Shown: one piece after another, positions 1 to 50,204 of the stretch
Numbering within the stretch: the first letter of the stretch is position 1
Layout of the letters: every line of letters begins with the position of its first letter
Origin: an uncultured Acidobacteriota bacterium
Lineage (GTDB): Bacteria; Acidobacteriota; Vicinamibacteria; Marinacidobacterales; SMYC01
Assembly: GCA_963820855.1 (NCBI GenBank)
Contig: CAWGBY010000021.1
Coordinates: 5,354-69,353 of the forward strand
Reading direction: 5' to 3'
DNA: 64,000 bases
Notes under the pieces: generated by a model
The model's database searches: none
What the model saw: only the letters and a program-made list of their open reading frames with translations
What the model was told of the DNA's origin: nothing
Made by a program: the position numbers and the translations under genes

Positions 1-399
1 GCTTTCGCCTTGGACCTCGAGAACGACGTTGATGGCGTCCTCTCGCAGTCGGCGGCCGAGCTTTTCGGCCCACTCTACCACCAGCACCGCTCCTTCCTCT
101 TCCATCTCCTCGATTCCGAGCTCCGCGAGCTCCCGTTCGTTCTCGATGCGGTAGAGGTCGATATGGTACAGCACGCGGTTCCCGCCGCTATGGCGCGCGA
201 CGAGCGCGAAGGTGGGACTTGCGATCTCGCTCGGGTCGATTCCGTGATAGGACGCGATACCTTTGGTGAAGAGAGTCTTTCCCGCGCCGAGCTCACCGTG
301 AAGATAATAGAAGGACGCTTCCGGATGCTGGCGGGCCAGCTCGAAGGCGGAAGAGAAGGTTTTCTCGGGGCTCTCCGTCTCCGCGACGGTCTCCTTCAA
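1..399 (-). CDS. tsaE: tRNA t6A37 threonylcarbamoyl-transfer ATPase TsaE (YjeE); C-terminus cut by window edge
   Basis: Minus-strand frame, absent from the ORF track because it has no stop inside the window. It reads ...SFYYLHGELGAGKTLFTKGIASYHGIDPSEIASPTFALVARH..VLYHIDLYRIENERELAELGIEE..AVLVVEWAEKL. P-loop and layout are typical of TsaE. Candidate TTG start at 399-397 overlaps the nnr stop (TTGA). Confidence 0.8.
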   Translation of the reverse strand, partial: MKETVAETESPEKTFSSAFELARQHPEASFYYLHGELGAGKTLFTKGIASYHGIDPSEIASPTFALVARHSGGNRVLYHIDLYRIENERELAELGIEEMEEEGAVLVVEWAEKLGRRLREDAINVVLEVQGES

Positions 400-1946
400 T
401 CGGCCCCCAGACTTCGGAGGGCGGCGGGAAGCTTTCCGATGAGGTCGGTCGCGACCAGGGAAGTCTGACCGATCTCGGCGGCGCCGAGGTCGCCGGCGAG
501 TCCGTGGACGTGGGCTCCCAGAGGAAGGGCCTCCTCGACGTCGATCCCCTGAGCGAGTAGTGAGCCCACGATTCCGGTGAGCACGTCTCCGGTCCCTCCG
601 GTCGCCATTCCCGCATTGCCCGTGAGATTCACGAGAACGTTTCCACTGGGATCCGACACGAGCGTGCGGCGGCCTTTCAAAAGCACGTGCGCCTTCGTGC
701 TCTGTGCGAGCCTTCGAACGGCGGTCAGGCGATCGTTCTCGACTTCCTTCGCCGATGTTCCGAGGAGTCTTCCGGCTTCTCCGGGGTGGGGAGTGAGAGC
801 GAGAGCGCGGCCGGAAGGTATGCTGCCCGGCTTGCGGGCAAAGGCGTTGAGCCCGTCGGCGTCGACGACGGTCGGAATCTCCGAAGCGGCGACGATCTCG
901 CAAATCAGATCGACGGTCTCGTCTTCCGTGCCGAGTCCAGGTCCCACGGCGAAAGCCTGGCGTTCGCGGAGAAGCTCGCGGAGCCTGGGAGCCGCCTCTA
1001 TCGAGACCGCTCCCGACTCGGTCTCGGGCAGAGCCTCCCACATGGCTTCCGGGATCTGCGGCGCCATGATCGGGATGGCGCTTTTCGCGGAAGCGACCGT
1101 GACCAGGCCGACGCCCGCGCGGAGCGCCGCTTCGGCGGCCATCACGGCCGCCCCCGTCTTCCCGAGCGAGCCCGCCAGGATCAGGAGGTGGCCGAACGTG
1201 CCCTTGTGGCTTACGGGCCGGCGCCTTGGAAGGGCCTCCGCCAGGATCGAAGGCTCGAGGGTCTCGAGCCGAGGCGTAGCACTCTCGAGAAACCGCGGCG
1301 GGATCCCGATCTCGACGACCGCGACCTCTCCGCAAAGCTCCGATGCCGGAGAAAGGAAGTGGCAGACCTTCGGGGCCGCGAAGGCGATGGTGAGATCGGC
1401 GTCGAACGCGACTCCGTGAACCACGCCGGAGTCCGATGACAGACCCGAGGGAACGTCGAGCGCTACGCGGAACGTCTCGAGCGAGTTCAGGTCCTCGATC
1501 ACGTGCCGATGGAAAGCGCGGGGCGGCTCGGTCAGGCCGGTGCCGAAGAGCGCGTCGACGACCACGTCGGCGGAAGCGATCTGGGCGAGGACGTCGCTCC
1601 AGGAGTCGGCCGCTGGAGCGGACTCGACGGAGAGTCCGAGCTTCAAGGCGGCCTGGAGGTTGTCGAGCGCCTCGGCGGAGAGCGCTTCGAACGGAGCGAG
1701 AACGATCGCGCGGGCGTCGTAGCCGAGATTGGCGAGCGTCCGGAGCACGACCAATCCATCGCCTCCATTTCCGCCCTTGCCGCAGACGATGACGATGGAT
1801 CGAGACTCGAGATCTTCGATGCGCTCCACCATGGTCCGGACGGCGGCGCGTCCAGCGCTCTCCATCAGGACCGACGCGGGAATTCCGACCTCACGGATCG
1901 TGCGCCGGTCGGCCTCGCGCATGGAGGCGCCGGTCAGGATGTGCAT
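396..1946 (-). CDS. nnr: bifunctional NAD(P)H-hydrate repair enzyme Nnr (epimerase + ADP-dependent dehydratase)
   Basis: Intact 516-aa ORF. N-terminal YjeF_N motif (IVIVCGKGGNGGDGLV). C-terminal carbohydrate-kinase-like domain (HKGTFGHLLILAGS..GKTGAAVMAA, GGTGDVLTG). Confidence 0.9.
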   Translation of the reverse strand: MHILTGASMREADRRTIREVGIPASVLMESAGRAAVRTMVERIEDLESRSIVIVCGKGGNGGDGLVVLRTLANLGYDARAIVLAPFEALSAEALDNLQAALKLGLSVESAPAADSWSDVLAQIASADVVVDALFGTGLTEPPRAFHRHVIEDLNSLETFRVALDVPSGLSSDSGVVHGVAFDADLTIAFAAPKVCHFLSPASELCGEVAVVEIGIPPRFLESATPRLETLEPSILAEALPRRRPVSHKGTFGHLLILAGSLGKTGAAVMAAEAALRAGVGLVTVASAKSAIPIMAPQIPEAMWEALPETESGAVSIEAAPRLRELLRERQAFAVGPGLGTEDETVDLICEIVAASEIPTVVDADGLNAFARKPGSIPSGRALALTPHPGEAGRLLGTSAKEVENDRLTAVRRLAQSTKAHVLLKGRRTLVSDPSGNVLVNLTGNAGMATGGTGDVLTGIVGSLLAQGIDVEEALPLGAHVHGLAGDLGAAEIGQTSLVATDLIGKLPAALRSLGAD

Positions 1947-2750
1947 GGGAGAGGCTTCCGGCCGAGCGCGATTTCGATCGCCTCTGCCGCCGCGACCTCC
2001 ATGGGATCCAGGAGTGGAACCTCACCGGCGCGCTCTCGACCTAGAACCAGCGGAATCTCGGTGCAGGCGGTGAGGACGAGAGACGCCCCCGCATCGCTAA
2101 GTCTTCGAGCGGCCTCCTGGAGCCGCGCGGCGATCGATTCACGGCACTTCGGGATCGCGGAACGCTCCCGACTTGATCCCGCCCCCGGCGCGTTTTCCCT
2201 CGTGCAACGGGCCGAAGATCGGTTCCATCACGAGCCGTTCCTGCATCTCGTCACCGCCGTTCAGATCGAGCAGACTCACGACGCGCGCTCGCGGCGCGAG
2301 CGCTTCGACCTTCTTCCGATAGATATCGGAGCGAACCGTTCCGGACACGGCGAGGAGACCGATCGTCCCGTCCCCACCCACGCGTTCGACCGCGCGCTCG
2401 GCGGTGACTTGAATCATGTCGAGGAAGGGGAGCGTGGTCCGCCGGCGGACCTCATCGAGAAACGCATGAGCGGTGTTGCAGGGAATGACGGCGAACGCGG
2501 CGCCCTCGAGCCGCTTCGCGCTTTCGACCATGGCATCGACGGGAGACTCCGCTCCCTCGAGAAGCGCCCGGGTCCGATCGGGAATGCCCGGCACGGACGA
2601 CACGACCCAGGAAGGGTAGTCCTGGTCTCGAGGCGGCCGACCGAGAGTTTTCGCCGCGCGGTCGAGGAGGAGGCTTTCGAACTCGATGTGGGCATGAGGC
2701 CCCATGCCTCCGAGGATGCCGATCACATACTTCCAGCGGGGCTCTGTCAT
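1934..2750 (-). CDS. aspartate/glutamate racemase family protein, interrupted by one frameshift in this assembly
   Basis: ORF 2139..2801 gives YVIGILGGMGPHAHIEF...AVIPCNTAHAF. The C-terminal third, ESIAARLQEAARRLSDAGASLVLTACTEIPLVLG..PLLDPMEVAAAEA, continues in another frame right after the TGA at 2141-2139. Likely start is the MTEPRWKY Met at 2750. The stop at 1936-1934 overlaps the nnr start. Confidence 0.75.
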
Positions 2751-2787
2751 TTCCTGGGAGCCGGCGAACTGCCGGCTTTCAGACCGC

Positions 2788-2997
2788 TCAGGTGCCGCCA
2801 TAGCCGACGGTCACCTTGCCGCCGTCGAGGATGACGGGGACGGCTCTTCCACCTCCCGTGACCGACATCATCTCCTTCAGACGAGCGGCGTCCTTCTTCA
2901 CGTCGTAATACTCGACCCCTCGTTCCGCATAGGCCTCACGGGCCGCGGTGGTGTAGGGTCAGCCAGCTTTTCCGTAAATCTTGACTTTCTCGGACAT
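2788..2997 (-). CDS. glutaredoxin-like small (seleno)protein, in-frame TGA at 2961-2959 read as Sec
   Basis: Not in the ORF track. The minus strand from ATG 2997 (AGGA 7 nt upstream) reads MSEKVKIYGKAG-TGA-PYTTAAREAYAERGVEYYDVKKDAARLKEMMSVTGGGRAVPVILDGGKVTVGYGGT*. This is a glutaredoxin fold (cis-Pro VP, GG tail) with the TGA at the first position of the CxxC-type motif. Confidence 0.6.
2925..2948 (-). promoter_or_regulatory. candidate bacterial SECIS hairpin downstream of UGA 2961-2959
   Basis: Starts 10 nt after the UGA: CCGC-GGCC-(CGUGA)-GGCC-UAU-GCGG. Two 4-bp stems, a 3-nt bulge, and a G/U-containing apical loop about 18 nt from the UGA. Confidence 0.4.
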
Positions 2998-3021
2998 AAA
3001 TAGATCCTAGCACGACGCTTT

Positions 3022-3807
3022 TCAGCTCATCACCTGTCCGCCGCAGATGTTGTACGCCTGGCCGGTGATTCCGGACGCGTCGTCGGAAGTCAGGTAGAGC
3101 ACGAGCTTCGCGATCTCGGCAGGATCGAGGAAGCGCTTGAGGGGGACACCCGCGATGGCTTGCTCGCGGAATGCTTCGGGAGAGACTCCCAAGACGGCCG
3201 CCGTCTCTCGAATGCCCTGGTCCGCCATGTCGGTCTCGACCCAACCCGGACAAAGCGCGTTCACGGTGATTCCGCGGGGCGCGAGCTCGAGCGCGAGCGC
3301 CCGGGTGAATCCGATGATTCCGTGTTTCGCCGTGCAGTACGCGGCGTACCCGGGAACGCCGAACCGGCCGAGCACCGAGGACATGTTCACGATGCGTCCC
3401 CCGCCCGAGCTCATGAGCGGGAGCGCGTATCTCGTCATCCGGTAGCTTCCGGTCAAGTTCGTCGCCAGGATGCGATCCCACGATTCCTCTTCGCCGTCGC
3501 GCGGCGGGCCGAGCGGCGTCCGTCCCGAGATTCCGGCGTTGTTCACGAGGACATGAAGCTTCCCCCAGCTCTTCTCGACTTCCTCGAAGGCCCGCCGGAC
3601 CTCGTCGCCCGAGGTCACGTCGCAGGAAAGCGCGATCGCGCGGCGGTCTTTTCCGTTCCAGGAATCAGCGAGCCTCTCGAGCTCCGCGAGAGAGCGGGCG
3701 CATAGAGCGACCTTCGCTCCCTCCTCCAGATAGGCCTCCGCGATGGCGCGCCCGATCCCGCGGCTCGCGCCGGTCACGACGGCGACTTTTCCAACGAAAC
3801 GGTTCAA
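3022..3807 (-). CDS. SDR family oxidoreductase (FabG-like)
   Basis: C-terminal 261 codons of ORF 3022..4305: GKVAVVTGASRGIGRAIA, NNAG, S..YxxxK (YAAYCTAKHG). GGAGAGG SD precedes a TTG at 3807 that overlaps the NUDIX stop (TTGA). The Arg-rich N-terminal extension of the ORF is spurious. Confidence 0.9.
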   Translation of the reverse strand: MNRFVGKVAVVTGASRGIGRAIAEAYLEEGAKVALCARSLAELERLADSWNGKDRRAIALSCDVTSGDEVRRAFEEVEKSWGKLHVLVNNAGISGRTPLGPPRDGEEESWDRILATNLTGSYRMTRYALPLMSSGGGRIVNMSSVLGRFGVPGYAAYCTAKHGIIGFTRALALELAPRGITVNALCPGWVETDMADQGIRETAAVLGVSPEAFREQAIAGVPLKRFLDPAEIAKLVLYLTSDDASGITGQAYNICGGQVMS

Positions 3808-4343
3808 GGTTTCCTCTCCTTCGTCCGGGAACAGAAGTAGCGGCGCGTGTAAGCGCGAAGCGCGTCCCGCGTGCTCGGAAAGGCGAGCTCCTCCCAGGGA
3901 ATGTCCGGAGGCGCGAAGGTCGCGAGCTCGAGGCTCTCGTCTTCGGCCCGTGGCTCCCCCGAAACGAGGTCCGCGGCGTAGACCACGACCACGATGGGCG
4001 AGCCGGAGTAGGAGTACACGTCGAGAAGCTCCCGCACGCGCACCTCGACGCCGGCTTCCTCTCGCGTCTCGCGGACCGCCGCTTCCACGACCGTCTCGCC
4101 GCGGTCGACGAACCCGCTCGGGAACCCCCACTTTCCGTAGCCGGGCTCGATCGCGCGCTTCAGCAGGACGAGCTTGCCGTCGACTTGAAAGAGAGTTCCC
4201 GCAGCGACCTTTGGATTCAGGAAGAAGACGAACTCGCAAAGGCGGCAGACGAGCCTCTCGGGCTCGTTCTTCTTCAGCGTCTTCGAATCGAGGGCGCCGC
4301 CGCACTTGGGACAGAAGCGGTACTCGTCCGCGGGAATGCTCAT
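3804..4343 (-). CDS. NUDIX hydrolase with N-terminal zinc ribbon
   Basis: CPKCGG..CRLC ribbon, then a Nudix box GFPSGFVDRGETVVEAAVRETREEAGV. Alternative start at 4367. Confidence 0.85.
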   Translation of the reverse strand: MSIPADEYRFCPKCGGALDSKTLKKNEPERLVCRLCEFVFFLNPKVAAGTLFQVDGKLVLLKRAIEPGYGKWGFPSGFVDRGETVVEAAVRETREEAGVEVRVRELLDVYSYSGSPIVVVVYAADLVSGEPRAEDESLELATFAPPDIPWEELAFPSTRDALRAYTRRYFCSRTKERKP

Positions 4344-4390
4344 GGTGGTCGACCCGTGATCTATCATCCGGTCCAGGGGAGAGTCAAAGA

Positions 4391-5338
4391 ATGGCGATAT
4401 TCTTCACTGAAGAGGACGTCCGGAGCCTCCTTCCGATGGCAGACGCAGTCGCCGGGGTCGAGGAGGCGTTTCGGCTCCTGGGCGAGAAGAAGGCGGTCAA
4501 CCGGCCCCGGGGCCGCGTCCGGCTGAACCGGCTCGTGCTCCACGTGATGTCGGCGGGAAGCGACGCGCTTGGCTACGCGGGGCTCAAGGCGTACACCACC
4601 GGACCTTCGGGCGCGCGTTTCTACTTCCTGCTCTTCGATTCGGGAACCGGGGAGCTGAAAGCGATGATGGCGGCCGATAGCCTGGGGCAGATCCGCACGG
4701 GCGCCGCGACCGCGGTCGCGACCCGCCACCTCGCACCGCGCGAGGCGACGCGGGTGGGAATCTACGGAAGCGGCTGGCAAGCGCGCTCGCAGATCGAAGC
4801 CCTCGCGGCTTCGCGTGCAGTGTCCCAGGTGATGGTCTTTAGCCGCGATCCCGCCCGGCGACAACAATTCTGCGGCGAGATGACGAGCGCCATCAATCTT
4901 CCCGTGCGCCCGGCGTCGCGTCCGGAGGAAGTCGCGGCGGAGTCCGAGATCCTCGTGACCGCGACGAGCTCGAAGGAGCCGGTCCTCCTCGGCGCGTGGC
5001 TCGAGCCGGGGCATCACGTGAATGCGGTCGGCTCGAACGCCGTGGGCCGCCGCGAGATCGACGAAGCCGCGGTGACCAGGGCCGACGTCATCGCCGCGGA
5101 CTCCGTCGAGGGCGCGAAGATCGAGTGCGGCGATCTGATCGCCGTCGTGGAGGCGGGGAAGTTATCCTGGGACAAGGTCCGGGAGCTTTCGGACATCGTC
5201 GCCCTTGGCTTCACGCGGGAGCCTCGCGCGGTAACGCTCTTCGAATCGCAGGGGCTCGCGATCGAGGATGTCGCGGCGGCGAAGACGGTCTACGAGAGGG
5301 GACTGGAGCAAGGGCGCGGACGATCGATCGATGTCTAG
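4391..5338 (+). CDS. ornithine cyclodeaminase / mu-crystallin family protein
   Basis: Begins MAIFFTEEDVRSLL inside ORF 3743..5338. Rossmann motif IYGSGWQARSQIEA. Family-typical length of 315 aa. Confidence 0.9.
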   Translation: MAIFFTEEDVRSLLPMADAVAGVEEAFRLLGEKKAVNRPRGRVRLNRLVLHVMSAGSDALGYAGLKAYTTGPSGARFYFLLFDSGTGELKAMMAADSLGQIRTGAATAVATRHLAPREATRVGIYGSGWQARSQIEALAASRAVSQVMVFSRDPARRQQFCGEMTSAINLPVRPASRPEEVAAESEILVTATSSKEPVLLGAWLEPGHHVNAVGSNAVGRREIDEAAVTRADVIAADSVEGAKIECGDLIAVVEAGKLSWDKVRELSDIVALGFTREPRAVTLFESQGLAIEDVAAAKTVYERGLEQGRGRSIDV

Positions 5339-7176
5339 ATCCAAACGGGAAATTCTCGAGGCCGCGGCTGCGGGAGACGCCATCGCGGAGCTCCTGATTC
5401 CGGTCCTCGAGGAGCCCACGGGCGTTTCGAGCGCGGGATTCCCCTACTTGCAGCAGAGCGCGTGGGAGACGTTTCGCGATCGGGTCCCTCATCTCCTCGG
5501 AATGGGACAGAGAGTGGTCGATGCCTGCGATCGGTTGAGCTCGGCCTTCGACCGCGGAGACTCCGCGCTGGAGGATCGGGAAGCGATTCGAAACGCGTCG
5601 ACCGTCGTCCGGCAGGTCGCGCTCACCGCGGCCATCACCGCGCCCCCCGATCTCTGGCTCTTGCGGCACGTGCTCGGCGCTTTCGCGGATCTCGGGCTTC
5701 TCGAACGGCTTTCGCAAGGGGAAGCCATCTACCCCGATGCCTGCGCCGTTCCAATCGACGGCCGGACAAGGCGGCTCGATGCCGCCGAGCTCGACAAGGA
5801 CCTCCATTTCCTTCTGTCCCGGGGGCTCGTCGAACAATACGACGAGGGATTTCGCATCGCGGGTCATCCCCGGGCAAGAGACCTCTTCTCTCGCATTGGA
5901 CCGCTTCCCTGCCCGAATTCCCGCGAACCTGACGAGTCTGTGGAGGCGTCTTTTCACCGGTTTGGTGCTCTCGAACGAGGAGCTCGAACTTCTCCTCGAT
6001 CTCGGCAAGGCGGCACGGCGCCGCATCGACACCGCGCAGAACCACTGGATTCCCGACCGCGACGAGCTCGGGCTCGGATTTCGGCTGCTGCCGATCGTCC
6101 TCGGCCTCCGGGCGAGCGGGCGGACCTCCGCGCTGGTCGAGTCCGCCGCGACGCGGCCCGAGGAATGGAGCCGCCCGCATCCCGTGGTCGCCGCCTCCGC
6201 ACTCGAGGTCCTCACCGCTTCCGGTTGGATGCGGCGGGACGGCGAGAGCTACAAAGTGACGGCCTCGGGGGCGAGAGGCTTCGCGAAAGGCCCCGGGCCC
6301 TTCGGCATCATCGAGACCTACCACCCGTACATGCAGCGGGCTCGCGAGATCCTCCTCCACGGGACATCGTCCGCTCACGTGAGCCGCGGCGAGAACGTGG
6401 GAGCGAGCCAGGACGCGAACCGCGCTACCTTCGAACAGGCGAACGACGCGCTCGATCGCTTCTGCCAGGACACGGGCTTTCAGTATCAGGTATTCATCGA
6501 GCACGCGATCGGCCGCGGCGAGGCGACGCGCCAGAGGTTCGCCCGGTCGGGCGGCGCGCTCCACTACGTGGGGGCGGATCTCGAGGACGCCGCGATCGAC
6601 GCGGCGATGGAGGAGCAGCGCCGGGGCGCCCTACCCGCGAGCATGATGTTCGTGCGGCAGGCGGACATCGGCCGGCCCGAGGTCCTGACCGCGGCGCTCT
6701 CGAGCGCGGGACTCTCATCCGACGGCGCGGTGATGCTCGTCGGAAACGGATTTCACGAAGTGCGCGGCCAGTCGGACGAGAGCATGGTGGAAGTCTTCCG
6801 CGCCTATCACCGCGCGGGATTCCTGCTGCTCTTCACCGAAGAAAGCGCGCTCTCTATCGATGATTTGAGGGCTACCGCCTGGAACACCTACCACGCGGGG
6901 TTCAAGTACGTTCACGACAAGAGCGGCCAGGCGCTGCGGCCCGCGGAGCCGCTGCCGCGACCCGCGCGGCTCGGCCGTCCCATGCTCGCTCCGTGGAGCG
7001 AATGCGCCCGGCACGCCGGCTACGTGCGCGCGGACGCCTACTGCACGAGGACGCGCACCGTTTACCCCTACCGGCCGAAGGGCGGGTTCAACCCTTCGAT
7101 CAGCGTGAACCACTTCTTCGTGCCGTCGCGGCTCGCGGGAACGATCCGCTCGGCGAAGTCGGGCTCGGAACCGTAA
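5331..7176 (+). CDS. hypothetical protein, winged-helix-like N-terminal repeats plus degenerate class-I methyltransferase-like C-terminal domain; one frameshift near 5895-5930
   Basis: ATG 5331 overlaps the OCD stop by 8 nt. Frame of ORF 5268 (MSRSKREILEAAAAGD...GLVEQYDEGFRIAGHP) continues in the frame of ORF 5737 (LTSLWRRLFTGLVLSNEE...). The C-terminal part has YVGADLEDAAIDAA, MLVGNGFHEV and VNHFFV. Confidence 0.55.
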
Positions 7177-8097
7177 GCGTCAGGGCGCTCTTCTTACCCC
7201 GCCGGGCACGGCGAGATTCAGAGGCGGCGGCGGCGCAAGCTTCCGCGGGAGCGAGGGCGAACCACGCGACTCCCGCGCGCTGGGGAAGCCGGCGGACCTC
7301 TCGTCCCGTCGCGCGATCGACGAAGACCGCATCGAACGTTCCGTTCGTTCCCAGAAGACCGCGCCACATCACGGACGGGTTTTCGAAGAGCGCCTTCTCG
7401 GGCTCGAAGTAGGACGCCTGCGCGATGTGCTCGGGAAGCTGCGCGAAAAGATCTCCGCCGTTCATGATCGTCACGAACACGGGCTCCGCGGAATGTTCGA
7501 CTTCGATCGTTCTCCCTCGACGGAACCTTCGAAGCCCCAGGCAATCCTCAGAGGATAGCCTCGGCGGACGGAGTCGAAGAGAGCCTCCTTCGTTCCCTCC
7601 ATCGCCTGGCCGTCCGCGTCGTGGCGGTAGACGAGGCGCCATGCGGGAATCGCGCAGGCCGAAGCGCGCTCGTCGACGCACCACTCGCTCGCGACGCGAT
7701 GAGTGCTGGGGTCGCTGCCGTCGTCGAAATGACTTTCGAGAACACCGTTCGTGCCGAGAAGTCCGGTCCATCGCAGACCGCCCCGCGGAAGCTCGATGCG
7801 GCCCTCGCCGCGCCGCGGCTGCTGCCTCTGGATGTCGTGGAGCTGCGCGAAAACGTTGCCTTCGAACTCGGTCAGAAAACCGGAGTCGGCCCAATGCGAG
7901 ACGTCGGGGGAGCCGTCGCCGTCGCCGTCGAGGGACCAGGAGACACGCAGGGGAAGTCCCGCGCGAAACGCCGAGAGAACGGCCGCCTTCGTTCCGTACT
8001 GCTCACGGCCATCCTGGTCCAATCGAACGAGAGGATGAGAGCAGAGAGACTCGGGAGGAGCTGCGAGCGCCGCGGCCAGAAGGAAAGGCGAGAACAT
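7100..8097 (-). CDS. secreted hypothetical protein with two internal repeats (LLGTNG motif); frameshifted near 7500, 3' end uncertain
   Basis: Signal-like start MFSPFLLAAALAAPPES. Repeat 1 is LRWTGLLGTNGVLESHFDD. Repeat 2, VMWRGLLGTNGTFDAVFVD, lies in the frame of ORF 7100..7894. Confidence 0.45.
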
Positions 8098-8098
8098 C

Positions 8099-8752
8099 TC
8101 ACCCCTGTGTCATCTGCGAAAGGAACTCTCGAAGCTCCTCGGGCTCGAAGCGGAACGGACCCATTCCGCCCTTGTAGGCGATGCGGCCCGCCTGGTCGAT
8201 GACGTAGATCCGCTCGGGCCACGCGGCGTAGCAGGCCATCGCGGTGTTGCGGATGTCATCGACCAGAGTCTCCGTCTCGACCTCCATCCGATCGACGAAG
8301 GTGCGAGCGAGCTCGACGCGAGCCTCGAAGGTCTGGGGCTGGTCGAAGACCACCTTCGGACTCGACGTTGGAGTCCATCTGCCATTCGTCCTCCGGGTGG
8401 GCTTCCTTGATGTACACGAGGACGAGCTCGACGCGGTCCTTGAAGTCTTCCCTGATTTTTTCGATTTCGGCCAACCTGGCTCGAAAGGGCGGTCACGTGT
8501 AGCTGCCGAAGACCAGGACCAGAGGCTTCTCACGATAGAAATCGGAGATCTTCCTCGGTCCCGAGCCGTCGGCAGACGCAAGCTCGAGGTCGGGAGCCAG
8601 GTCGCCGACCGCGAGCGAGCCCTCGGAGCGGATGTCGTACTCGTTGTAGCGGATCCACGCCCGCTTCAGCGCTTCGAAGTAGCCCCACGCCGCCGAGAAG
8701 AACGAGGGCTACGGCCGCGAGGAGGAGTCTTGAGCCATCTCTTCTTCTTCAA
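8099..8752 (-). CDS. membrane-anchored iodothyronine-deiodinase-like (thioredoxin-fold) selenoprotein; in-frame TGA at 8495-8493; two indel frameshifts (about 8690 and 8355)
   Basis: TTG 8752 gives MKKKRDGSRLLLAAVALVLLGGVG (TM anchor). Then ...DFYREKPLVLVFGSYT-TGA-PPFRARLAEIEKIREDFKDRVELVLVYIKEAHPEDEWQMD. The C-terminus comes from ORF 8099..8581 (VVFDQPQTFEARVELARTF...ERIYVIDQAGRIAYKGGMGP). Confidence 0.7.
8468..8483 (-). promoter_or_regulatory. candidate bacterial SECIS hairpin downstream of UGA 8495-8493
   Basis: Starts 9 nt after the UGA: CG(A)GCCA-GGU-UGGCCG. GC-rich stem with one bulged A and a GGU apical loop about 16 nt from the UGA. Confidence 0.45.
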
Positions 8753-10139
8753 GGTCTCGAGCCCTCCGGAGTCCGCGCCGTGCCCGCCTCACGGCGAACG
8801 AAGGCGCCGTCGGTGATCGCTCCGACGTGCTTCTGGTCTTTCACGACCACTTTGCCTCGGAGGAGGACGGTGTCGGGGATGCCGGTCACCTCGGTGCCCT
8901 CGTAGGCGTTGTAGTCAACCTTCATCCGATGGGTCTTCGCAGCTGATGGTCCACTTGCGCTTCGAGTCCCAGAGGACCAGGTCGGCGTCAGCCCCGACGG
9001 TGATCGACCCTTTGCGCGGGTACAACCCGAAGATCTTCGCGGGACGCGTGGAGACGAGCTCGACGAAGCGGTTCATGGTGATGCGGCCCCGGTTCACTCC
9101 GCCCTCGTGCAGGAGCATGAGCCGATTCTCGATCCCGGGAGCGCCGTTCGGGATCTTGCTGAAGTCGCCCTTGCCGAGCTCCTTCTGCTCCTTCATGCAG
9201 AAGCTGCAGTGATCGGTCGAGACCGCCTGGAGGGCGTCGGTCTTGAGACCGTTCCAGAGCCTCTCCTCGTTCCCCTTGGGCCGGAGGGGCGGCGACATCA
9301 CGTACTTCGCGCCCTCGAATCCAGGCTTCTCGTAGTCTTCGTACGACAGGAAAAGGTACTGCGGACAGGTCTCGGCGAATACCGGAAGACCCCGCTCGCG
9401 GGCGCGGCGGACCTCTTCCATCGCGTCGCCGGCGGAGAGATGCACGATGTAGACGGGAACGCCCGCCATCTCGGCGAGCGCGATCGCCCGCCGCGTCGCC
9501 TCGGCCTCGGCGCTCATCGGACGGGTGAGGGCGTGCCACTTGGGCTCGGTGTGGCCTTCCGCGAGAGCGCGTTTCACGAGCGTATCGATGACGCCTCCGT
9601 TCTCGGCGTGCATGCAGATGAGGCCGCCGTTGTCGCGCGTTCGCAGCATCGCCTGGAAGATGGTGGCGTCGTCGACCATGAAGACGCCGGGGTAGGCCAT
9701 GAAGAGCTTGAAGGTGGTGATGCCTTCCTTGACGAGCGCGTCCATCTCCTTCAGATGGGATTCCTTCAGCTCGCGCACGATGGTATGGAAGGAGTAGTCG
9801 ATGGCCGCTTTCGCCTCGGCGCGCGCGAACCAGGCGTCGACTCCCTTTCGCAGAGAGCTTCCAAAGTCCTGGATGGCGAAGTCGATGACGGTGGTGGTGC
9901 CGCCGCAGGCCGCGGCGATGGTTCCGCTCGACCAGTCGTCCGCGGTGACCGTGCCTCCGAAGGGCATGTCGAGGTGCGTATGGACGTCGATGCCTCCGGG
10001 CATGACCAGCTTTCCCGAGGCGTCCAGGGTCGAAGCCCCCTTCGAGCTCGAGGCCGATGACGGCGATCTTGCCGCCGGCGATGCCGATGTCGGCACGGTA
10101 GGTGTCGTCGGCGGTGACGATCGTGCCGCCGCGTATCAC
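8749..10139 (-). CDS. dihydropyrimidinase / D-hydantoinase; two frameshifts in this assembly
   Basis: GTG 10139 gives VIRGGTIVTADDTYRADIGIAGGKIAV. A shift lies in the C5 run at 10036-10040. ORF 8915..10096 follows (GGIDVHTHLDMPFGG...FKLFMAY...HAENG..STDHC). A second shift lies near 8938-8945, then KTHRMKVDYNAYEGTEVTGIPDTVLLRGKVV. The stop at 8751-8749 overlaps the downstream TTG. Confidence 0.9.
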
Positions 10140-10271
10140 GGTATCGAGTACGCATCCGCGGAGGATAAAGGCTCCCCGTTCGCGAAATCAAGCTCGCGTG
10201 GTAACGTAGCGCGCCTTCGCGTTCGCGGCGGGTTTACGCGCCGAAGCGTACTCGCGAAGGCGGAGGTTTTC

Positions 10272-11743
10272 GATGCGAACCGGCTCTTTCATCGACGGAG
10301 AGTGGATCCAGCCCCTTCCGGGCGCGTGTTGAAGAACGTGAATCCCGCCGACCCGGACGACGTGATCGCGGAGTTCCCGATGGCGACGGCGAAGGACGCC
10401 GAGCGCGCCATCGAGGCGGCGCGGAACGCCTTCGAGAAGTGGCGCAAGGTCCCTGGTCCCGAGCGCGGGCGGGTCCTGTGGCGCGCCGCCGACATCGCCC
10501 GCACCCGCGTCGACGAGATCGCGCGGGTCATGACGCGCGAAGAGGGGAAGATTCTGAAGGAAGCGCGAGGCGAGGTCATGAAGGGCATCTCTCTCATCGA
10601 GTACTACGCGGGTGCCGGGTTTCGCATGGGAGGAAAGACGCTCCCGTCCGAGGCGCGAAACACGTTCACGTACACCATCCGCCAGCCGGTCGGCGTCGTC
10701 GCGCTCATCGCTCCCTGGAACTTTCCCTGGGCCATTCCGGTCTGGAAGTCGGCGCCGGCGCTGGTCGCGGGAAACGCGGTCGTCTTCAAGCCCGCGAGCC
10801 TCACGCCTTCGACGGCCGCGCTCCTCGCCGGAGATTTACGCGGATGCCGGGCTCCCTCCCGGAGTCTTCAACGTCGTCGTCGGCTCCGGCTCGGAGGTCG
10901 GAGAGACGCTCGTCCACTCGCGCGACATTCCGATCATCTCCTTCACCGGCTCGAACTCGATCGGGACCGATCTGTACGTCAAAGCCGCCTCGAGAGGAGC
11001 CAAGGTGACGTGCGAGATGGGAGGGAAGAACGCGGTCATCGTGATGTCCGACGCCGATCTCGACAAGGCGGCTCTCGCCATCCGCGACGGAGCCTTCGGG
11101 TCGACCGGCCAGCGCTGCACCGCGACCTCGAGGGTCATCGTGCTCGAGGACAAGAAAGACGCGCTGGTGGAGCGGCTCGTCGAGCACGCCCGGAACATCC
11201 GCGTCGGCAACGGGCTCGACGAGAACGTCGACATGGGGCCCGCGGTCGACGAGAGCCAGTACAAGACCGATCTCGAGTACGTCGAGATCGCGAAAGCGGA
11301 AGGCGCGCGACTCGTGTCGGGAGGCGGCAAGCCCCGAGGGACTCGAGGACGGCTATTTCGTCGAGCCCACGATCTTCGACGACGTCGACGCCGGGATGCG
11401 TATCTTCCAGGAAGAGGTCTTCGGGCCGGTGCTCGCGGTCTCGAAGGCGAAGAGCTTCGAGGAGGCGATCCGGATGGCGAACTCGGTTCCGTTCGGACTC
11501 ACCACGTCGATCTTCACCCGGGACGTGGACCAGGTGATGCGCTTCGTCGAGGACGTCGAGTGCGGCATGGTGCACGTGAACGAGCCCACCATCGGCGGAG
11601 AGGCGCAGCTTCCGTTCGGCGGAGTCAAGGCGACCGGTGTCGGCGAGCGTGAGATGTCCGAAGAGGGCCTGAACTTCTTCACCGAGCTCAAGACCGTCTT
11701 CGTGAACTATTCCGGCGAGTCCGGGAGGCAAATGTTTCGTTAA
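10272..11743 (+). CDS. NAD(P)-dependent aldehyde dehydrogenase family protein; at least 3 frameshifts (about 10325, 10830, 11340)
   Basis: GGAGG then ATG 10272. Fragments in three frames join into one ALDH: VNPADPDDVIAEF, IAPWNFP, FTGSNSIG, EMGGKNA, GQRCTA, EEVFGPV, PFGGVKATG. Confidence 0.9.
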
Positions 11744-33795: not shown

Positions 33796-35042
33796 GAGGA
33801 AACCGCGTCGGTCTCGGTCAGTGTGAGGACGGTCTCGAGGAGGACGTTCGCCCCGAGCTCCAGGTCCGCGGGGTCGGTGTGCTCTTTCGGGTTGTGGCTC
33901 AGCCCCTTCACGCTGGGCGTGAAGATCATCCCCGACGGGCAGACGCGCGCGAGCATTTGGGCGTCGTGTCCGGCTCCCGCGGGGAGGCGCTTGACCGTCG
34001 CTCCGAGTGACGAGGCGGTCTCCTCGACGAGCGAGATCATTCTCGGATCGAAATCGACGGGCTCGAAGCGCGCGAGTCTTCGGGTCGAGATTTCGACGCC
34101 CTCGTCGTCCCCCGTCCGCCCGAGGAAATCGTCGAGCCTCGCTTCCGCCGACTGCAGGAGCTTCTCGTCGGTATTGCGGAGGTCCACCGTGAAGACCGCC
34201 TTGTTCGCGACGACGTTCACCAGGTTGGGCTCGAGCGTGAGGTAGCCGACCGTGCCGACCTGCGCGCCTTTCATCTCTCTCGTCAGTTGCCGCACGAACG
34301 CCGCCGTCGCCCCCGCCACGTACCCGGCGTCGTGCCGGTACGACATCGGCGTCGTGCCCGCGTGGTTCGACTGACCGCGCACGGTGACTTCCGTCCAGGA
34401 GATTCCCTGGACTCCGGTGACGGCGCCGATGCGGAAGCCCTCGGCCTCGAGGACCGGACCCTGCTCGATGTGAAGCTCGACGTAGGCGTACGGCACCGGG
34501 CCGGGGACCGGGGCCTCGCCTCGATAGCCAATGCGTGAAAGCTCGTCTCCGACCCGCTTTCCGTCGATGGTGACGGCGTCGTGAGCCTCCTCGAGCCCGA
34601 AGCCGCCGACGTACACCAGGCTCCCCATCATGTCGGGGGCGACGCGGCTGCCTTCCTCGTTCGAGAAGAAGGCCACGGCGAGCGGCCGCCGGGTCGTGAC
34701 ACCCGCGTCTTTCAGCGTTTCGACGACCTCGAGACCGGAGAGGACTCCGTAGTTTCCATCGTACCGCCCGCCGGTCCGGACGGTATCGATGTGAGAGCCG
34801 ACCATGACCGGAGGACCGTTCTCGAGGCCGGGACGGAAAGCGACGCCGTTTCCGATGGCGTCGATCGTGACCTTCATCCCGAGCTCGCGCATCCATCGGG
34901 TGACCAGATCGCGGCCCTCTTTGTCGGCGTCGGTGAAGGCGAGCCGGTTGCATCCGCCGTCGTCCCGCGCCCCGCGGGTCGCGAGCTCGGAAAGGCGACC
35001 GAGGAGCCTCTTGCCGTCGACGCGCAGTGATTTCTTCGTCAT
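33792..35042 (-). CDS. M20 family Zn-dependent amidohydrolase (allantoate amidohydrolase / N-carbamoyl-L-amino-acid hydrolase type)
   Basis: MTKKSLRVDGKRLLGRLSELA..GGCNRLAFTD..GSHIDTV..GRYDGNYGV..FSNEEG..SNHAGTTPM..GAGHDAQ. Intact. Confidence 0.9.
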   Translation of the reverse strand: MTKKSLRVDGKRLLGRLSELATRGARDDGGCNRLAFTDADKEGRDLVTRWMRELGMKVTIDAIGNGVAFRPGLENGPPVMVGSHIDTVRTGGRYDGNYGVLSGLEVVETLKDAGVTTRRPLAVAFFSNEEGSRVAPDMMGSLVYVGGFGLEEAHDAVTIDGKRVGDELSRIGYRGEAPVPGPVPYAYVELHIEQGPVLEAEGFRIGAVTGVQGISWTEVTVRGQSNHAGTTPMSYRHDAGYVAGATAAFVRQLTREMKGAQVGTVGYLTLEPNLVNVVANKAVFTVDLRNTDEKLLQSAEARLDDFLGRTGDDEGVEISTRRLARFEPVDFDPRMISLVEETASSLGATVKRLPAGAGHDAQMLARVCPSGMIFTPSVKGLSHNPKEHTDPADLELGANVLLETVLTLTETDAVSS

Positions 35043-35088
35043 CGGGAAATGCCCCCGGGCCTCAAAGGTTATGATAGCCTTTTTTCCC

Positions 35089-35961
35089 ATGGCCAGAATC
35101 GTCAAGGGCGGTCTCATCCAGTGCGCGAACCCCGTGAACGACGAGAGCCGTTCGGTTCGGGAGATCCAGGCAGCGGCGCTCGAAAAGCACCTGCCGTTCG
35201 TCGATCGGGCGGGTCAGGAGAAGGTGCAGCTCCTGTGTCTCCAGGAGATCTTCAACGGGCCTTACTTCTGCCCGTCGCAGGACGCGCGGTGGTACGACGC
35301 GGCGGAGCCCGTGCCGGGACCGACCGTCGAGGCTCTCGTTCCCTATGCGCGGAAGTACCAGATGGTCGTCGTCGTTCCTGTCTACGAGAGGGAGCAGGCG
35401 GGCGTCTACTACAACACCGCCGCCGTCCTCGACGCCGATGGGAAGTACCTCGGCAAGTACCGCAAGAACCATCTCCCGCACACGTCGGGCTTCTGGGAGA
35501 AGTATTTCTTCAAGCCGGGAAACCTCGGCTACCCCGTGTTCCAGACCGCCTACGCGACCGTCGGGGTCTACATCTGCTACGACCGCCACTTTCCGGAAGG
35601 CGCCCGGCTTCTGGGATTGAAAGGCGCGGAGATCGTCTTCAATCCTTCGGCCACGGTCGCCGGGCTCTCGCAGTATCTCTGGAAGCTCGAGCAGCCGGCC
35701 CACGCCGTCGCGAACGGCTACTTCATGGGCTGCCTCAACCGGGTGGGGGAAGAGGCCCCGTGGCGTATCGGAAAATTCTACGGGCACAGCTACTTCGTCG
35801 ATCCGCGGGGGAAGTTCCTCGCGGAGGGAAGCGAAGACCGGGACGAGCTCGTCACCGCGGAGATGGATCTCGACCTCATCGAGGAAGTCCGGCGCGTCTG
35901 GCAGTTCTACCGCGATCGCAGGCCCGAGACCTACGGAGAAATGACGGCCCTTCTTCCTTGA
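35089..35961 (+). CDS. beta-ureidopropionase-type CN-hydrolase (nitrilase superfamily)
   Basis: MARIVKGGLIQC..LLCLQEIF..KYRKNHLP..VYICYDRHFPE..NPSAT. Intact. Divergent from the M20 gene with a 46-bp spacer. Confidence 0.9.
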   Translation: MARIVKGGLIQCANPVNDESRSVREIQAAALEKHLPFVDRAGQEKVQLLCLQEIFNGPYFCPSQDARWYDAAEPVPGPTVEALVPYARKYQMVVVVPVYEREQAGVYYNTAAVLDADGKYLGKYRKNHLPHTSGFWEKYFFKPGNLGYPVFQTAYATVGVYICYDRHFPEGARLLGLKGAEIVFNPSATVAGLSQYLWKLEQPAHAVANGYFMGCLNRVGEEAPWRIGKFYGHSYFVDPRGKFLAEGSEDRDELVTAEMDLDLIEEVRRVWQFYRDRRPETYGEMTALLP

Positions 35962-35980
35962 GGCCGCCGGGAGGCACGAC

Positions 35981-36478
35981 ATGTCTTTGACCGATGCACA
36001 AGCTCACGCGGAGCGGGAATCTCTCGTCGAGCGCTACATCCGCAAGCCCGCCTACACCGGGTTCGAGAGCGAGGCCGCGGGGGTCAACCACCTCGCGTTC
36101 ATCAGCACCGATCTCGACAAGACCATCGAGTTCTACACCCAGGTCATCCGGCTCAAGATGCTGCGGGTGAGGGCGCATGACGAAGACCCGCGATCGACCC
36201 AGGTGTTCTTCGACATGGGACGAGGGGAGCTTCTCGCGTTTCTCCGCGTGAACGACATGAAGGAGAAAGCGCGCCTCGGACTCGGCGGATTCCACCACGC
36301 CGCGCTCACGGTGACCCGCGAGCAATACGAGGCGGCGAAAAAGCGCCTCGACGAGAGGGGAATCAAGTACAGCACGATCTCGCACGAGATCCTGGACACC
36401 ATCACCCTCACCGACCCGAACGGGATCACGCTCGAGCTCTCGGTCTGGAACGTCGACCCGAAAGACGTCCAGATGTGA
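35981..36478 (+). CDS. VOC (glyoxalase/bleomycin-resistance/dioxygenase) family protein
   Basis: GVNHLAFISTDLDKTIEFY..GGFHHAALTV..ITLELS. Intact 165 aa. Confidence 0.85.
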   Translation: MSLTDAQAHAERESLVERYIRKPAYTGFESEAAGVNHLAFISTDLDKTIEFYTQVIRLKMLRVRAHDEDPRSTQVFFDMGRGELLAFLRVNDMKEKARLGLGGFHHAALTVTREQYEAAKKRLDERGIKYSTISHEILDTITLTDPNGITLELSVWNVDPKDVQM

Positions 36479-37938
36479 CAACGGGACTCTCGGGCCCCGT
36501 CGTTCTCGTCTCCTATCTCGTTCTGGTCCTCGCCATCGGGTGGCTCTCGTCCCGCGGGCAGGGAACCCCCGAGGATTTCTGGGTCGCGGGACGTAGCTTT
36601 GGAGTGCCGCTTCTGGTGGCGGCGAACGTCGGCTCCATCCTGCACGGGGGAGCGATTCTGAGCCACGTCGGATTCGCCGCCCACGTCGGGGGAGTGGCCG
36701 TGACCACGAACCTGTCGTACGCGCTCGGGTTCGCGGTGATGTTCTTTTTCTTCGCGGCGAAGCTCCGCCGCTCGCGCGGGTTCACCCTTCCCGACTTCAT
36801 GGGCGACCGGTTCGATTCGCGCCTGCTCCGAGGCTGGACCGCTCTCGTGGTCGCGGTGACGAGCATCCTCTATCTCGTCGCGCAGATCCGCGCGATGGGC
36901 TTCGTGATGGAGCGTCTTCTCGGGCTCGAGTTCTGGGTGGGCCAGCTCGTCGGCACGGCGATCTTCGTCGCGTACGTCGCTCTCGGAGGCCTGAGCGCCG
37001 TCGTCTGGACCAACGTCCTCCAGATAGCCCTGATGTGGATCGGACTCCTGGTCCTGGCGCCTTCCGTGTATCGCGCGATCGGTGGGTTTCGCGAGCGTCA
37101 TGGACGCGAGCGGAAGCGGTGGCTCCCGGCTGGACCTCTCCTTCCGGAGTGCAGTGGTCGACGGGATATCTCATCTCCTGGTACCTCCTCGTCTTCATCG
37201 CCTACAGCACGAGGCTCGAGCTCCTGACGAAGGTGTTCGCCGCCCGCGACGAGGCCGTCGCGCGCCGCGCCATTCCGTGGACCGCGGTCATCGTGATCGC
37301 CTTTCTCGTCTTCGGCGGGACTCTATCTGGCCGCCGCCGCGCGCGTGCTGGTATGGGACTCGATCGCGTCGCCGGACGAGGCCTTTCCGGCGATGATCGC
37401 GATGCTCCTCGGACCGCTCGGCGACGTCGCTCGCGCTCACCGGCGTCGCCTGCGCCATCATGTCCACGACCGACTCCCTTCTTCTGATGACCGGATCGGC
37501 GGTGGCGCACGATTTCCTGAGAAGGTGCGTTCACGAGCCGAGAGGAACGAAGAGGAGCGAGGCCTACTATCTCAGGGTCTCGCGGCTGACGGTCGTGATG
37601 GTGGGCGCCCTGAGCTTTCTCCTCGCGCTTCCTGACGTCGCCCTCATTCTCGAGCTCGTGGCCTACGCGCTCGCGATCGTGGGGTCGAGTTTCTTCTTCC
37701 CGCTGCTCGCGGGGCTCTGGTCGCCGCGCGTGAGCCGCGAAGCGGCGACGATCGCCTCGATCGCGGGCGGCCTCATTGCGGCGTTCTGCACGGTGTTCGC
37801 GATCCGGGAGGCGCCCTGGGCGCTCCAGGTGCACCCGGTCGTTCCCGGGCTCGCTCGTGTCCGGCGATGCTCATCGTGGTCGTGACTCTCTTCACCCGCC
37901 CGGTCCGCGACGAGGCGGTGCGGCTCTACTTCACCTGA
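36475..37938 (+). CDS. sodium:solute symporter (SSS) family transporter; about 5 frameshifts
   Basis: GTG 36475 overlaps the VOC stop (GTGA). EDFWVAGRSFG, TLPDFMGDRF, multiple TM segments across ORFs 36475, 37035, 37345 and 37460. Ends ..VRLYFT*. Confidence 0.8.
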
Positions 37939-43657: not shown

Positions 43658-43689
43658 GAGCGCGGCGTCTCTCGCTGAGCGCCGCGCTC
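43658..43689 (+). terminator. 10-bp perfect stem hairpin after the lipoprotein gene
   Basis: GAGCGCGGCG-12 nt-CGCCGCGCTC. No clear U-tract. Confidence 0.3.
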
Positions 43690-43702
43690 GCTCGGTTCCG
43701 GA

Positions 43703-44674
43703 ATGCTTCCCACGGTCGACCTGCATCGCCATCTCGATGGGAATCTGCGTCTCACGACGGTGCTCGATCTCGCCCGCAAGCATCGGGTGAGGCTTCCCGC
43801 CGACGACCTCGAAGGCTTGCGCCCTCATCTTCAGATCCGGGATCGGGAGCCGGACCTTCGCGCGTTCATCGCGAAGGTCGAGCTCATGGCGAGCGTCCTG
43901 GGCGACGACGATGCCTGCCGCCGGGTCGCTCGCGAGAACGTCGAGGACGCGCACGACGAGGGGATTCAGCACGTCGAGCTTCGATTCAGCCCTTTCTTCA
44001 TGGCGCGCGCGCATGGGTTGAGCCCGGAGAGCGTGGTGGGTGCGGTCGTCGAAGGAGCGTCGGAAGGCAGGCGCACGCACCCAATCTCCGTGAAGCTCAT
44101 CGGCATCCTGAGCCGGACCTTCGGGCCGGAAGCGGCCACGGTCGAGCTCGAGGCGCTCCTCGCACACCGGGAGCACATCACGGCGCTCGACCTCGCGGGC
44201 GACGAGGACGGCTGGCCGGGAGAGCTCTTCGTTTCCCATTTTCGGCGAGGCCGCGATGCCGGGTTTCGCATCACCGTGCACGCGGGGGAAGCGGCGGGGG
44301 CCGAAAGCGTCTGGCAGGCCATCCGCGATCTCGGCGCGGAACGGCTCGGCCACGCCGTGCGCGCCATCGACGATCCTGCGCTTCTCGACTACATCGCTGA
44401 GCACGGGATCGGAATCGAGTCTTGTCTCACGAGCAACGTCCAGACTTGCACCGTCAGGAGTTACGAGACTCACCCGCTGCGCCGCTTTCTCGATCGGGGG
44501 ATTCTGGCCTCGATCAATACCGACGATCCGTCGGTCAGCGGAATCGATCTCGCCCACGAGCTCACGCTCGCCGCCGAGGCGGCGGGGCTCAACGAGCGCG
44601 ACGTCCAGAAGGCGCAGCGAAACGCCGTTGCCACCGCGTTTCTTTCCAAAGAGGAGAAGGCGCGCCTCCTCTGA
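43703..44674 (+). CDS. add: adenosine deaminase
   Basis: [25 protein letters not shown]. Intact 323 aa. Confidence 0.92.
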
Positions 44675-49334: not shown

Positions 49335-50093
49335 CGGCTGGCGAGGCTCCGGACGAAATGCATCGTGAACCGCGCCGCCTGATGCGCCGCGATCTGCCCC
49401 AGGCGCCGGTAGTCTTTTCCCGGGTTCGGCTGCGCGAGGTTGCTGCCGCTCCGGATCACGAGGTGGGGCACGCCGAGCTGCCAGCATACTTGCGCGGCGG
49501 CGGAGCCTTCCATCTCGATGAGATCGCATCCGAGCTTTCGCCGGATGTCGTCGATCTTCTGCTTCGTCAATCCGAAGACGTCCCCGGAACAGACTCTCCC
49601 GGTCCTCACGAGCGGCTGGTAGGTGTGGCCGTTCGCGGTCACCTGGTTTTTGGGAAAGGTGCGAATCGCCGATCGAGCGAGGCTCAGGAGAGCGGCGTCC
49701 GCGGAGTACTCATAAGGCGTCATTTGTCCCGCGAGCGGACCGCGGACCTTGCGGTAGATCATCCCGGACTCGGTCCAATTCCCGGCGTTGTGATGCGATG
49801 TCTTCTTCGAAATGATGACGTCTCCGGTTCGAACTTCCGGATTGAGGCGCGCACCGGAGCCGGTAAAGATGAGCTCGGAGGGTCGGAAGCGGTGGAGGAA
49901 GAGCGCCGAAGTCATCGCCGCGTTCGTGATGCCGACGCCGGTGACGGCGACGATCACGGCGCGTGCGCCGAGCTTGCCTCGGTGGAAGGGATACCCCTCG
50001 AGCTCACCATCGCTTCTCGAGGACAAGCGCGGGAACGATGGAGGTGACCTCCGACGGCATCGCGCCCAGAATGAGGGTAACGGCTTTGGCCAT
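49331..50093 (-). CDS. nucleoside phosphorylase / MTA-SAH nucleosidase family (PNP_UDP_1); one frameshift near 50015
   Basis: ATG 50093 gives MAKAVTLILGAMPSEV. Then ORF 49331..50026 (VTGVGITNAAM, CDLIEMEGSAAAQVC). Confidence 0.8.
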
Positions 50094-50204
50094 GGCCGGC
50101 GCGCGATGCTATCACGAGCCGCCGCCGCTCCCCTCCTTCCGCCGATTGGAAACGAGATCGTCTGCTGCTACGCTTCCTGAAGTCTCGAACGGAGGGACTC
50201 GGCC

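Follow-up and report, generated by a model that had tools for sequence, protein, structure and literature searches.

Bacterial homologues of the animal deiodinases were reported in 2005 by Zhang, Fomenko and Gladyshev, whose Sargasso Sea survey contained four sequences, in selenocysteine (Sec) and Cys forms, with a bacterial Sec insertion sequence (bSECIS) element (PMC1088965). The Global Ocean Sampling (GOS) analysis of 2008 yielded 22 Sec-containing and 21 Cys-containing deiodinase-like sequences (PMC2398784), and reviews of prokaryotic selenoproteomes from 2022 and 2026 list deiodinase-like selenoproteins (PMC9312934, PMC13188914). Here we analyse a gene of this kind on a contig of an uncultured Acidobacteriota bacterium (CAWGBY010000021.1), within a 64,000-nucleotide stretch that we refer to as the window. 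The gene lies on the minus strand at 8099..8752 (654 nt as sequenced) and was delimited by its matches to PF00837, Dio3 and Dio2 and by the path of its reading frame. It shares with the published bacterial proteins the PF00837 domain, the pairing of UGA with Cys codons, and a predicted bSECIS just downstream of the UGA with a G in the small apical loop. The published sets are small and marine, whereas the window member comes from Acidobacteriota. The comparative analysis makes it very probable that this is a genuine Acidobacteriota Sec gene encoding a membrane-anchored PF00837 enzyme of the thioredoxin/peroxiredoxin fold, that its UGA is recoded by means of a SECIS element, and that the frameshifts within it are errors. 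The family has been known since 2005; the gene adds an Acidobacteriota member to it but no new category.

The corrected protein (with U replaced by C) was compared with PF00837 (T4_deiodinase), a check suggested in a preliminary description of the locus that had been made from the DNA letters alone. The protein scored 136.7 bits (E 1e-39) against a cutoff of 27, and residues 36-214 fell on profile positions 62-235 of 237. Weaker, overlapping matches were obtained with AhpC-TSA, Redoxin and Thioredoxin_8. The AhpC-TSA match (PF00578) reached 35.5 bits against a cutoff of 26 and lay beneath the far stronger PF00837 match; by eye, S83-x-x-U86 agrees with the peroxidatic (S/T)-x-x-C motif. The best NCBIfam match was NF038285 ('deiodinase_rel'), a hypothetical equivalog of 347 positions. 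Membership of this family was rejected, as the protein scored 190.2 bits against a cutoff of 250 and covered positions 177-339 of 347 only. The NF038285 model has an extra N-terminal region of ~170 residues that is absent from the window protein.

Matches were also obtained with mouse Dio3 (4tr3; E 2e-26) and with Dio2 (9h48; E 1.6e-21). The TGA codon aligns with the Cys engineered in place of Sec in these two proteins (FGSCT[U]PPF and FGSAT[U]PPF, respectively) and thus occupies the catalytic Cys/Sec position of the deiodinase family, as had been proposed. The window protein resembles Dio1-3 in its thioredoxin/peroxiredoxin-like fold, in the FGS-x-T-U-PPF motif, in the YI-x-EAHP-x-D-x-W edge of loop D, in a single N-terminal membrane anchor (predicted in the window protein) and in the proton-relay residues. 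In Dio2, proton-relay and catalytic functions are assigned to Ser127, Thr129, Tyr157, Glu160 and His162 (PMC11592359). Residues S83, T85, U86, Y113, E116 and H118 of the window protein align with their Dio counterparts and are at least 90% conserved among 82 bacterial sequences. By this alignment, the selenolate and the proton-relay core are retained.

Other positions set the window protein apart from the animal enzymes. The distal relay His (Dio3 His219, Dio2 His182) aligns with Pro138, and the carboxylate clamp (Dio3 Arg275, Dio2 Lys241) with Met196. The Dio sequence SCTU has a Cys adjacent to Sec, whereas the window protein has Tyr84. The position of the distal Cys of the animal enzymes is not Cys in the window protein and its clade, which have Cys173 instead. 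A second Cys is found at clade-specific sites among the Sec forms: at C173 in 21 of 72, the window protein included, and at another site in 43 of 72. Finally, the SECIS of Dio1-3 is an element of the 3' untranslated region, whereas the predicted element of the window gene is a coding-region hairpin beside the UGA.

The in-frame UGA, a predicted Sec codon, is located at 8493..8495 on the minus strand and corresponds, within the motif FGSYT-U-PPFR, to residue 86 of the corrected protein; position and context were exactly as first described. Translated in one frame, the region reads DFYREKPLVLVFGSYT before the TGA and PPFRARLAEIEKIREDFKDRVELVLVYIKEAHPEDEWQMD after it. In a scan of one genome per GTDB species we obtained 349 relatives, and read the active-site codon in the best 80. 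The same aligned codon was TGA in about 70 distinct loci (the best 80 of the 349 together with loci retrieved earlier) and TGC or TGT in 10 distinct loci (among the best 80). Judged from the aligned codons, the occurrence of TGA and TGC/TGT at one position is the classic signature of a Sec/Cys pair. The TGA forms, each one uninterrupted frame, span at least eight bacterial phyla. They include Acidobacteriota (among them 'Ca. Marinacidobacterales', Bryobacterales and Solibacter), Planctomycetota, Armatimonadota, Actinomycetota (Gaiellales, Thermoleophilia), Chloroflexota (Chloroflexia), Ignavibacteria, Binatia, and metagenome-assembled genomes (MAGs) labelled as Deltaproteobacteria. The core FGS.T[U/C]PPFR...VYI.EAHP was invariant, and invariant residues flank the codon on both sides.

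The Cys-type full-length homologues (P0040, P0044 and P0050, for example; annotated as 'redoxin domain-containing protein' or 'peroxiredoxin') have the same length, architecture and hydrophobic N-terminus as the window protein and read FGSFT-C-PPFR. They were 41-43% identical to it in a multi-sequence alignment and 44-49% in local alignments. They differ in having TGC/TGT for TGA, and most are without a hairpin at the SECIS position.

All of the ~70 Sec forms read U-P-P-F except two that read U-G-P-F, and none has a Cys at +3. The redox motif of deiodinase-like selenoproteins is given as 'UxxC' in the reviews (PMC9312934, PMC13188914), and not as the U-P-P-F or U-G-P-F found here. The representative used in the reviews may come from another subgroup; otherwise, the table entry is incorrect. 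This observation on the motif is a modest addition to what is known of the family. Equally modest is a second one: in many non-marine phyla, close relatives mostly have the Sec form, and gene callers split it almost universally. Among the closest relatives in our species-representative scan, Sec forms were more numerous than Cys forms in many environmental phyla.

The splitting was evident from a homology search of a collection of 5.8 billion proteins, in which we considered the 120 best matches. The closest match to the window protein was 93% identical. Most of the 120 were proteins of 119-140 aa that covered ~56% of the query and began at LAEIEK/MAEVQK, six codons past the TGA. On every retrieved contig, an open reading frame (ORF) of 82-87 aa ended 18 nt upstream of the ORF annotated as 'deiodinase'. 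The gene had been called invisible to ORF calling, and the post-TGA fragments and short upstream ORFs bear this out.

That gene callers do return two ORFs, and that the contig is prone to errors, would fit a TGA that is a true stop between two short genes, or a base-call error in a Cys-type gene. We regard such an origin of the TGA as scarcely conceivable. The same TGA is present in ~70 independent assemblies, and in the nearest of these the local DNA is identical: the 48 nt surrounding the TGA are the same in the independent assemblies L001 and L003. A single thioredoxin-fold domain crosses the codon, and the invariant PPFR is encoded in the 18 nt that separate the TGA from the downstream start as called. 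When the retrieved loci were translated straight through, each gave a single frame, in which a hydrophobic N-terminal segment is followed by FGSYT-TGA-PPFRA. The errors of the contig are indels, not substitutions; because of this, and because of the 48 identical nucleotides, the TGA is not to be taken for an error. The preliminary description had also considered that the orthologues might end here as two genes. Instead, the ~70 loci read through and 10 relatives have Cys. Comparison of the loci thus argues that the TGA is neither a read error nor a true stop, and that it does not mark the boundary of two genes; almost certainly, it encodes selenocysteine. The locus is a textbook case of standard pipelines splitting a selenoprotein at UGA, and a dedicated profile combined with a SECIS rule could mend hundreds of gene models.

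In bacteria, Sec is inserted when SelB carrying Sec-tRNA(Sec) binds the SECIS hairpin and the UGA is decoded. A 16-nt hairpin, CGAGCCAGGTTGGCCG, was found in the window at 8483-8468, 9 nt past the TGA and exactly where it had been placed in the preliminary description. The minimum-energy stem reaches 8486-8465 (-9.9 kcal/mol). The predicted bacterial SECIS hairpin (8465..8486, minus strand) therefore reads UUUCG(A)GCCA-GGU-UGGC-CGAAA, with an upper stem of 4 bp, a bulged A and a lower stem of 5 bp. Its apical loop GGU, at 8476-8474, lies 16 nt after the UGA. The published bSECIS model has a loop of 3-9 nt, an upper stem of 4 bp or more, a G in loop positions 1-2, a UGA-loop spacing of 16-37 nt and a minimum free energy (MFE) of -7.5 kcal/mol or lower (PMC13188914, Fig. 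2A). The window element lies within every one of these limits (GGU of 3 nt, 4 + 5 bp, 16 nt, -9.9 kcal/mol). The claim that the hairpin stands at the distance expected of a bSECIS was borne out by the spacing, by the agreement with the published model and by covariation within the family.

The Sec forms carry a hairpin of 6-9 bp in a fixed register, starting ~11 nt past the UGA, and compensatory changes in the stem are seen (GUCGCCA/UGGCGAC, GGUCCUC/GGGGACC, GUUCCCA/UGGGAAC and GGAACCA/UGGUUCC). Covariation was assessed for a named 7-bp helix in 36 diverse orthologues, with 500 shuffles and slid registers as controls. The cells were paired in 81.7% of cases, as compared with 65.9% in the shuffles (reached by 0 of 500) and 37-50% in the slid registers. 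Double-substitution cells numbered 39, against 12.2 in the shuffles, and affected six of the seven stem pairs. The covariation score was 0.409, against 0.146 in the shuffles (again 0 of 500) and 0.08-0.16 in the slid controls.

We also folded the region 10-36 nt after the codon in 70 Sec forms and 10 Cys forms. The median local MFE was -10.2 kcal/mol for the Sec forms, 67 of 70 reaching -7.5 kcal/mol or lower, and -3.3 kcal/mol for the Cys forms, of which 3 of 10 did so (Mann-Whitney p = 4e-6). The window element folded locally with -9.1 kcal/mol, a GGU loop and a spacing of 16. A G was present within the first two loop positions in all 70 Sec forms; the loop was GGU, GUC or GGC in most of them, and the spacing was 16-17 nt in 61 of 70. 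At the SECIS position, the Cys-form loci L038, L059 and L070 fold into hairpins (-7.6 to -9.9 kcal/mol), and L038 and L036 scored ~23 bits on the SECIS model described below. Hairpins in Cys-form loci could have been left over from a recent conversion of Sec to Cys, or could be due to chance.

A search with a covariance model had been suggested as well. We built such a model (R1) from 36 Sec-form elements outside the clade of the window gene. Its unique top match was the window element (8495-8457; 21.8 bits, E ~4e-5). The model scored Cys loci too, because it mostly captures conserved coding sequence, and was rejected as a structural discriminator. Rfam gave nothing relevant at the gathering threshold across the window, and at E values of up to 10 over 8380-8560 only chance matches to snoRNA and U6 models (9-13 bits). 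Rfam is without a usable model for the SECIS of Sec deiodinase-like genes.

As sequenced, the interval 8752-8099 has no single open frame. Between the TTG start at 8752-8750 and the terminal TGA stop at 8101-8099, all three minus-strand frames are used in the order 0, 1, 2, 0. The first part in frame 0 encodes TTG-KKKR and frame 1 encodes the hydrophobic segment. Frame 2 spans YFEALKRAW through the TGA to SNVESE, and the second part in frame 0 runs from VVFDQPQTF to MTQG and the stop. DNA alignment with intact orthologues revealed three single-base insertions, near 8734, 8688 and 8353. Removal of these leaves 651 nt, that is, 216 aa and a stop codon. The first insertion (context 8724..8740, minus strand) shifts the frame from 0 to 1; which base is the extra one is uncertain, since the orthologues differ from each other at the N-terminus. 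The second is an extra base in CTCGGCGGCGTGGGG (context 8679..8700, minus strand; frame 1 to 2). The third is an extra G in GAAGGTGG (context 8345..8363, minus strand; frame 2 to 0), where the orthologues read SNVESEVVFDQP. The insertions sum to +3, hence the raw interval of 654 nt remains a multiple of three.

The frame had been described as preserved across the TGA, in contrast to frameshifts elsewhere in the contig. This is correct for the TGA, but the gene itself is not free of frameshifts; the C-terminal stretch quoted in the preliminary description ends right before the third indel. Similarly, the TTG at 8752 and the hydrophobic anchor stood, the latter being represented in all full-length orthologues, but the quoted N-terminal peptide MKKKRDGSRLLLAAVALVLLGGVG did not. 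It splices MKKKR, from frame 0, to DGSRLLL...GGVG, which lies beyond the first indel in frame 1. Guided by the orthologues, the N-terminus reads MKKKRWSRLLLAAVALVLLGGWGYFEALKRAW. The hydrophobic segment, WSRLLLAAVALVLLGGWGYF (8680..8737, minus strand), follows the KKKR cluster and is a predicted membrane anchor or signal-anchor; an equivalent segment, variable in sequence, is found in every full-length orthologue. TGA is used twice in this gene, as the predicted Sec codon (8493-8495) and as the terminator (8099-8101). We rejected the possibility of a variant genetic code in which TGA is a sense codon, since TGA terminates this gene as well as other ORFs of the window.

Several observations weigh against a functional Sec gene at this locus. 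The window hairpin, taken alone, was not significant (z = -1.37; 23 of 200 shuffles folded as well); its significance derives from the comparative data only. The stem is almost constant among the 15 sequences of the gene's own clade, for which RNAalifold gave only four nearly invariant pairs; covariation is uninformative there. The sequences compared are related, and the shuffle and Mann-Whitney figures given above overstate their independence. Model R1 scored Cys-form loci too, with 10-23 bits. No tRNA-Sec was found in the 64-kb window, which is ~1% of such a genome, and no SelA, SelB or SelD domain among ORFs covering ~80% of it. This absence carries little weight, as the window covers so little of a multi-megabase genome. 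A literature search found no biochemical report on any bacterial deiodinase-like member. Finally, three indels within 654 nt could in principle signal a pseudogene.

The last point deserves separate treatment. On this view, the TGA was formerly a Sec codon and the gene was then inactivated by frameshifts. In its favour are the three +1 indels in 654 nt and the finding that the orthologous loci retrieved independently were intact in seven of seven cases. Intact ORFs from L008-L010, which are MAGs of uncultured Acidobacteriota syntenic with the window, were used as tblastn probes of the neighbouring genes. Against these orthologues, the aldehyde-dehydrogenase-like gene at 10149-11740 and the hydantoinase/dihydropyrimidinase gene at 8936-10288 were each found in three frames, and the gene at 5151-7137 in two (one switch). 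At least three neighbours thus have frame breaks of the same type. The third indel in the deiodinase-like gene is a change in the length of a G run (GAAGTGG to GAAGGTGG), typical of sequencing errors. Indels aside, the protein is 81-93% identical to its orthologues, and the invariant core is without substitutions. A decaying pseudogene is for these reasons unlikely. Since the neighbouring genes are broken likewise, the indels are a property of the contig, and the three frameshifts are sequencing or assembly errors rather than decay. ClpB, peptidase S8 and other genes of the window likewise seem fragmented. Single-base indels riddle 5151-11740 and probably the whole window, and ORF-based readings of it require frame correction.

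The negative result for the Sec machinery leads to a different question, namely whether the UGA could be read without canonical Sec insertion. A suppressor or tRNA-Sec-like tRNA might insert Cys or Ser, or termination and read-through might be mixed. Unusual tRNA-Sec-like 'allo-tRNAs', possible missense or nonsense suppressors, have been reported from Acidobacteria, and selC*-type tRNA-Cys from other phyla (PMC5389517). Such decoding leaves unexplained why at least eight phyla have conserved, precisely at the site required by SelB, a hairpin that shows the geometry of a bSECIS, compensatory changes and a loop starting with G, and why most Cys forms lack it. Moreover, the codon occupies the position of the catalytic Sec of the animal enzymes. 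We consider non-canonical decoding very unlikely and favour Sec insertion.

Indirect support for the use of Sec in this lineage comes from L005, a 7-Mb genome of the 'Marinacidobacterales' type, and from the literature. Directly upstream of the deiodinase-like orthologue in L005 we found a CMD/AhpD-like gene (1903-2718, plus strand) with an in-frame TGA in VNACEY-TGA-VKAH, a canonical CxxU motif. It is followed by a hairpin (region CUGCAGCC-GGGAAG-CUGCAG), and the gene is split into ORFs of 84 aa and 186 aa. Acidobacteria have been recorded as carriers of selenoproteins (PMC1794560, Table 2). In the window, two further in-frame TGA candidates were rejected; their frames look antisense to real genes and are without redox motifs.

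How the enzyme might be made and work can be outlined from these data. In translation, Sec would be inserted at the UGA (8495-8493). Judging from its SECIS features, the stem-loop at 8486-8465 within the coding sequence would recruit SelB with Sec-tRNA(Sec) to the ribosome, and the terminal TGA at 8101-8099 would act as an ordinary stop. The selenolate at residue 86 would lie in the FGS-x-T-U-PPF pocket with Ser83, Thr85, Tyr113, Glu116 and His118 retained, and would attack an electrophilic substrate to give an Se-X or Se-OH intermediate. A thiol, for which the clade-conserved Cys173 is a candidate, would resolve this intermediate, and re-reduction would be by a thioredoxin-type system. The proposal of C173 as the resolving thiol is speculative. 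The catalytic steps and the substrate are inferred, the former by homology to Dio2/Dio3 (PMC11592359).

The likeliest substrates would be a halogenated phenolic compound (reductive dehalogenation) or a peroxide or disulfide (peroxiredoxin-like chemistry). The residue comparison narrows the hypotheses to non-iodothyronine electrophiles, since the window protein retains the proton relay but has neither the carboxylate clamp nor the distal His. We favour a Sec-based oxidoreductase acting on such an electrophile. Thyroid hormone is probably not the substrate, since the clamp is replaced by Met196 and Dio3 His219 by Pro138. No neighbouring gene was common to more than 7 of 84 loci, and the genomic context therefore gives no functional clue.

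The Sec clade of the UPPF type is found in soil, freshwater and marine bacteria of at least eight phyla and is systematically misannotated as two ORFs. It is tempting, though on balance doubtful, to see in it a widespread membrane-anchored, Se-dependent reductive dehalogenase of natural halogenated phenolics that would be ancestral to animal deiodinase chemistry. If true, this would amount to a non-corrinoid, oxygen-compatible route of dehalogenation, and to a large hidden demand for selenium in Acidobacteriota and Planctomycetota.

Downstream of the deiodinase-like gene, an ORF of 208 aa occupies 7471-8097 on the minus strand. Its ATG (at 8097) lies 2 nt past the deiodinase-like stop at 8101-8099, and its N-terminus, MFSPFLLAAALAAPP, resembles a signal peptide; no Pfam family was reported for it. 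From their arrangement, the two genes could be co-transcribed. The ORF is not a conserved neighbour at other loci. Genes of nucleobase and nucleoside catabolism (dihydropyrimidinase/hydantoinase, adenosine deaminase, PNP/UDP phosphorylase) are abundant in the window, at about 8900-10300, 33800-37000, 43679-44671 and 49334-50167, and several amidohydrolases are present. Among the catabolic genes is a carbon-nitrogen hydrolase that runs together, in the frame-broken sequence, with [2Fe-2S] and molybdopterin domains of the xanthine-dehydrogenase type. The order of the NUDIX, Asp/Glu racemase and YjeF_N/Carb_kinase genes downstream (399-4403) is shared with a 34-kb Joint Genome Institute (JGI) contig that carries the 88%-identical orthologue P0002. 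The upstream side of the deiodinase-like gene matches L008-L010, not the JGI contig. By this comparison of gene orders, close Acidobacteriota relatives have undergone local rearrangement.

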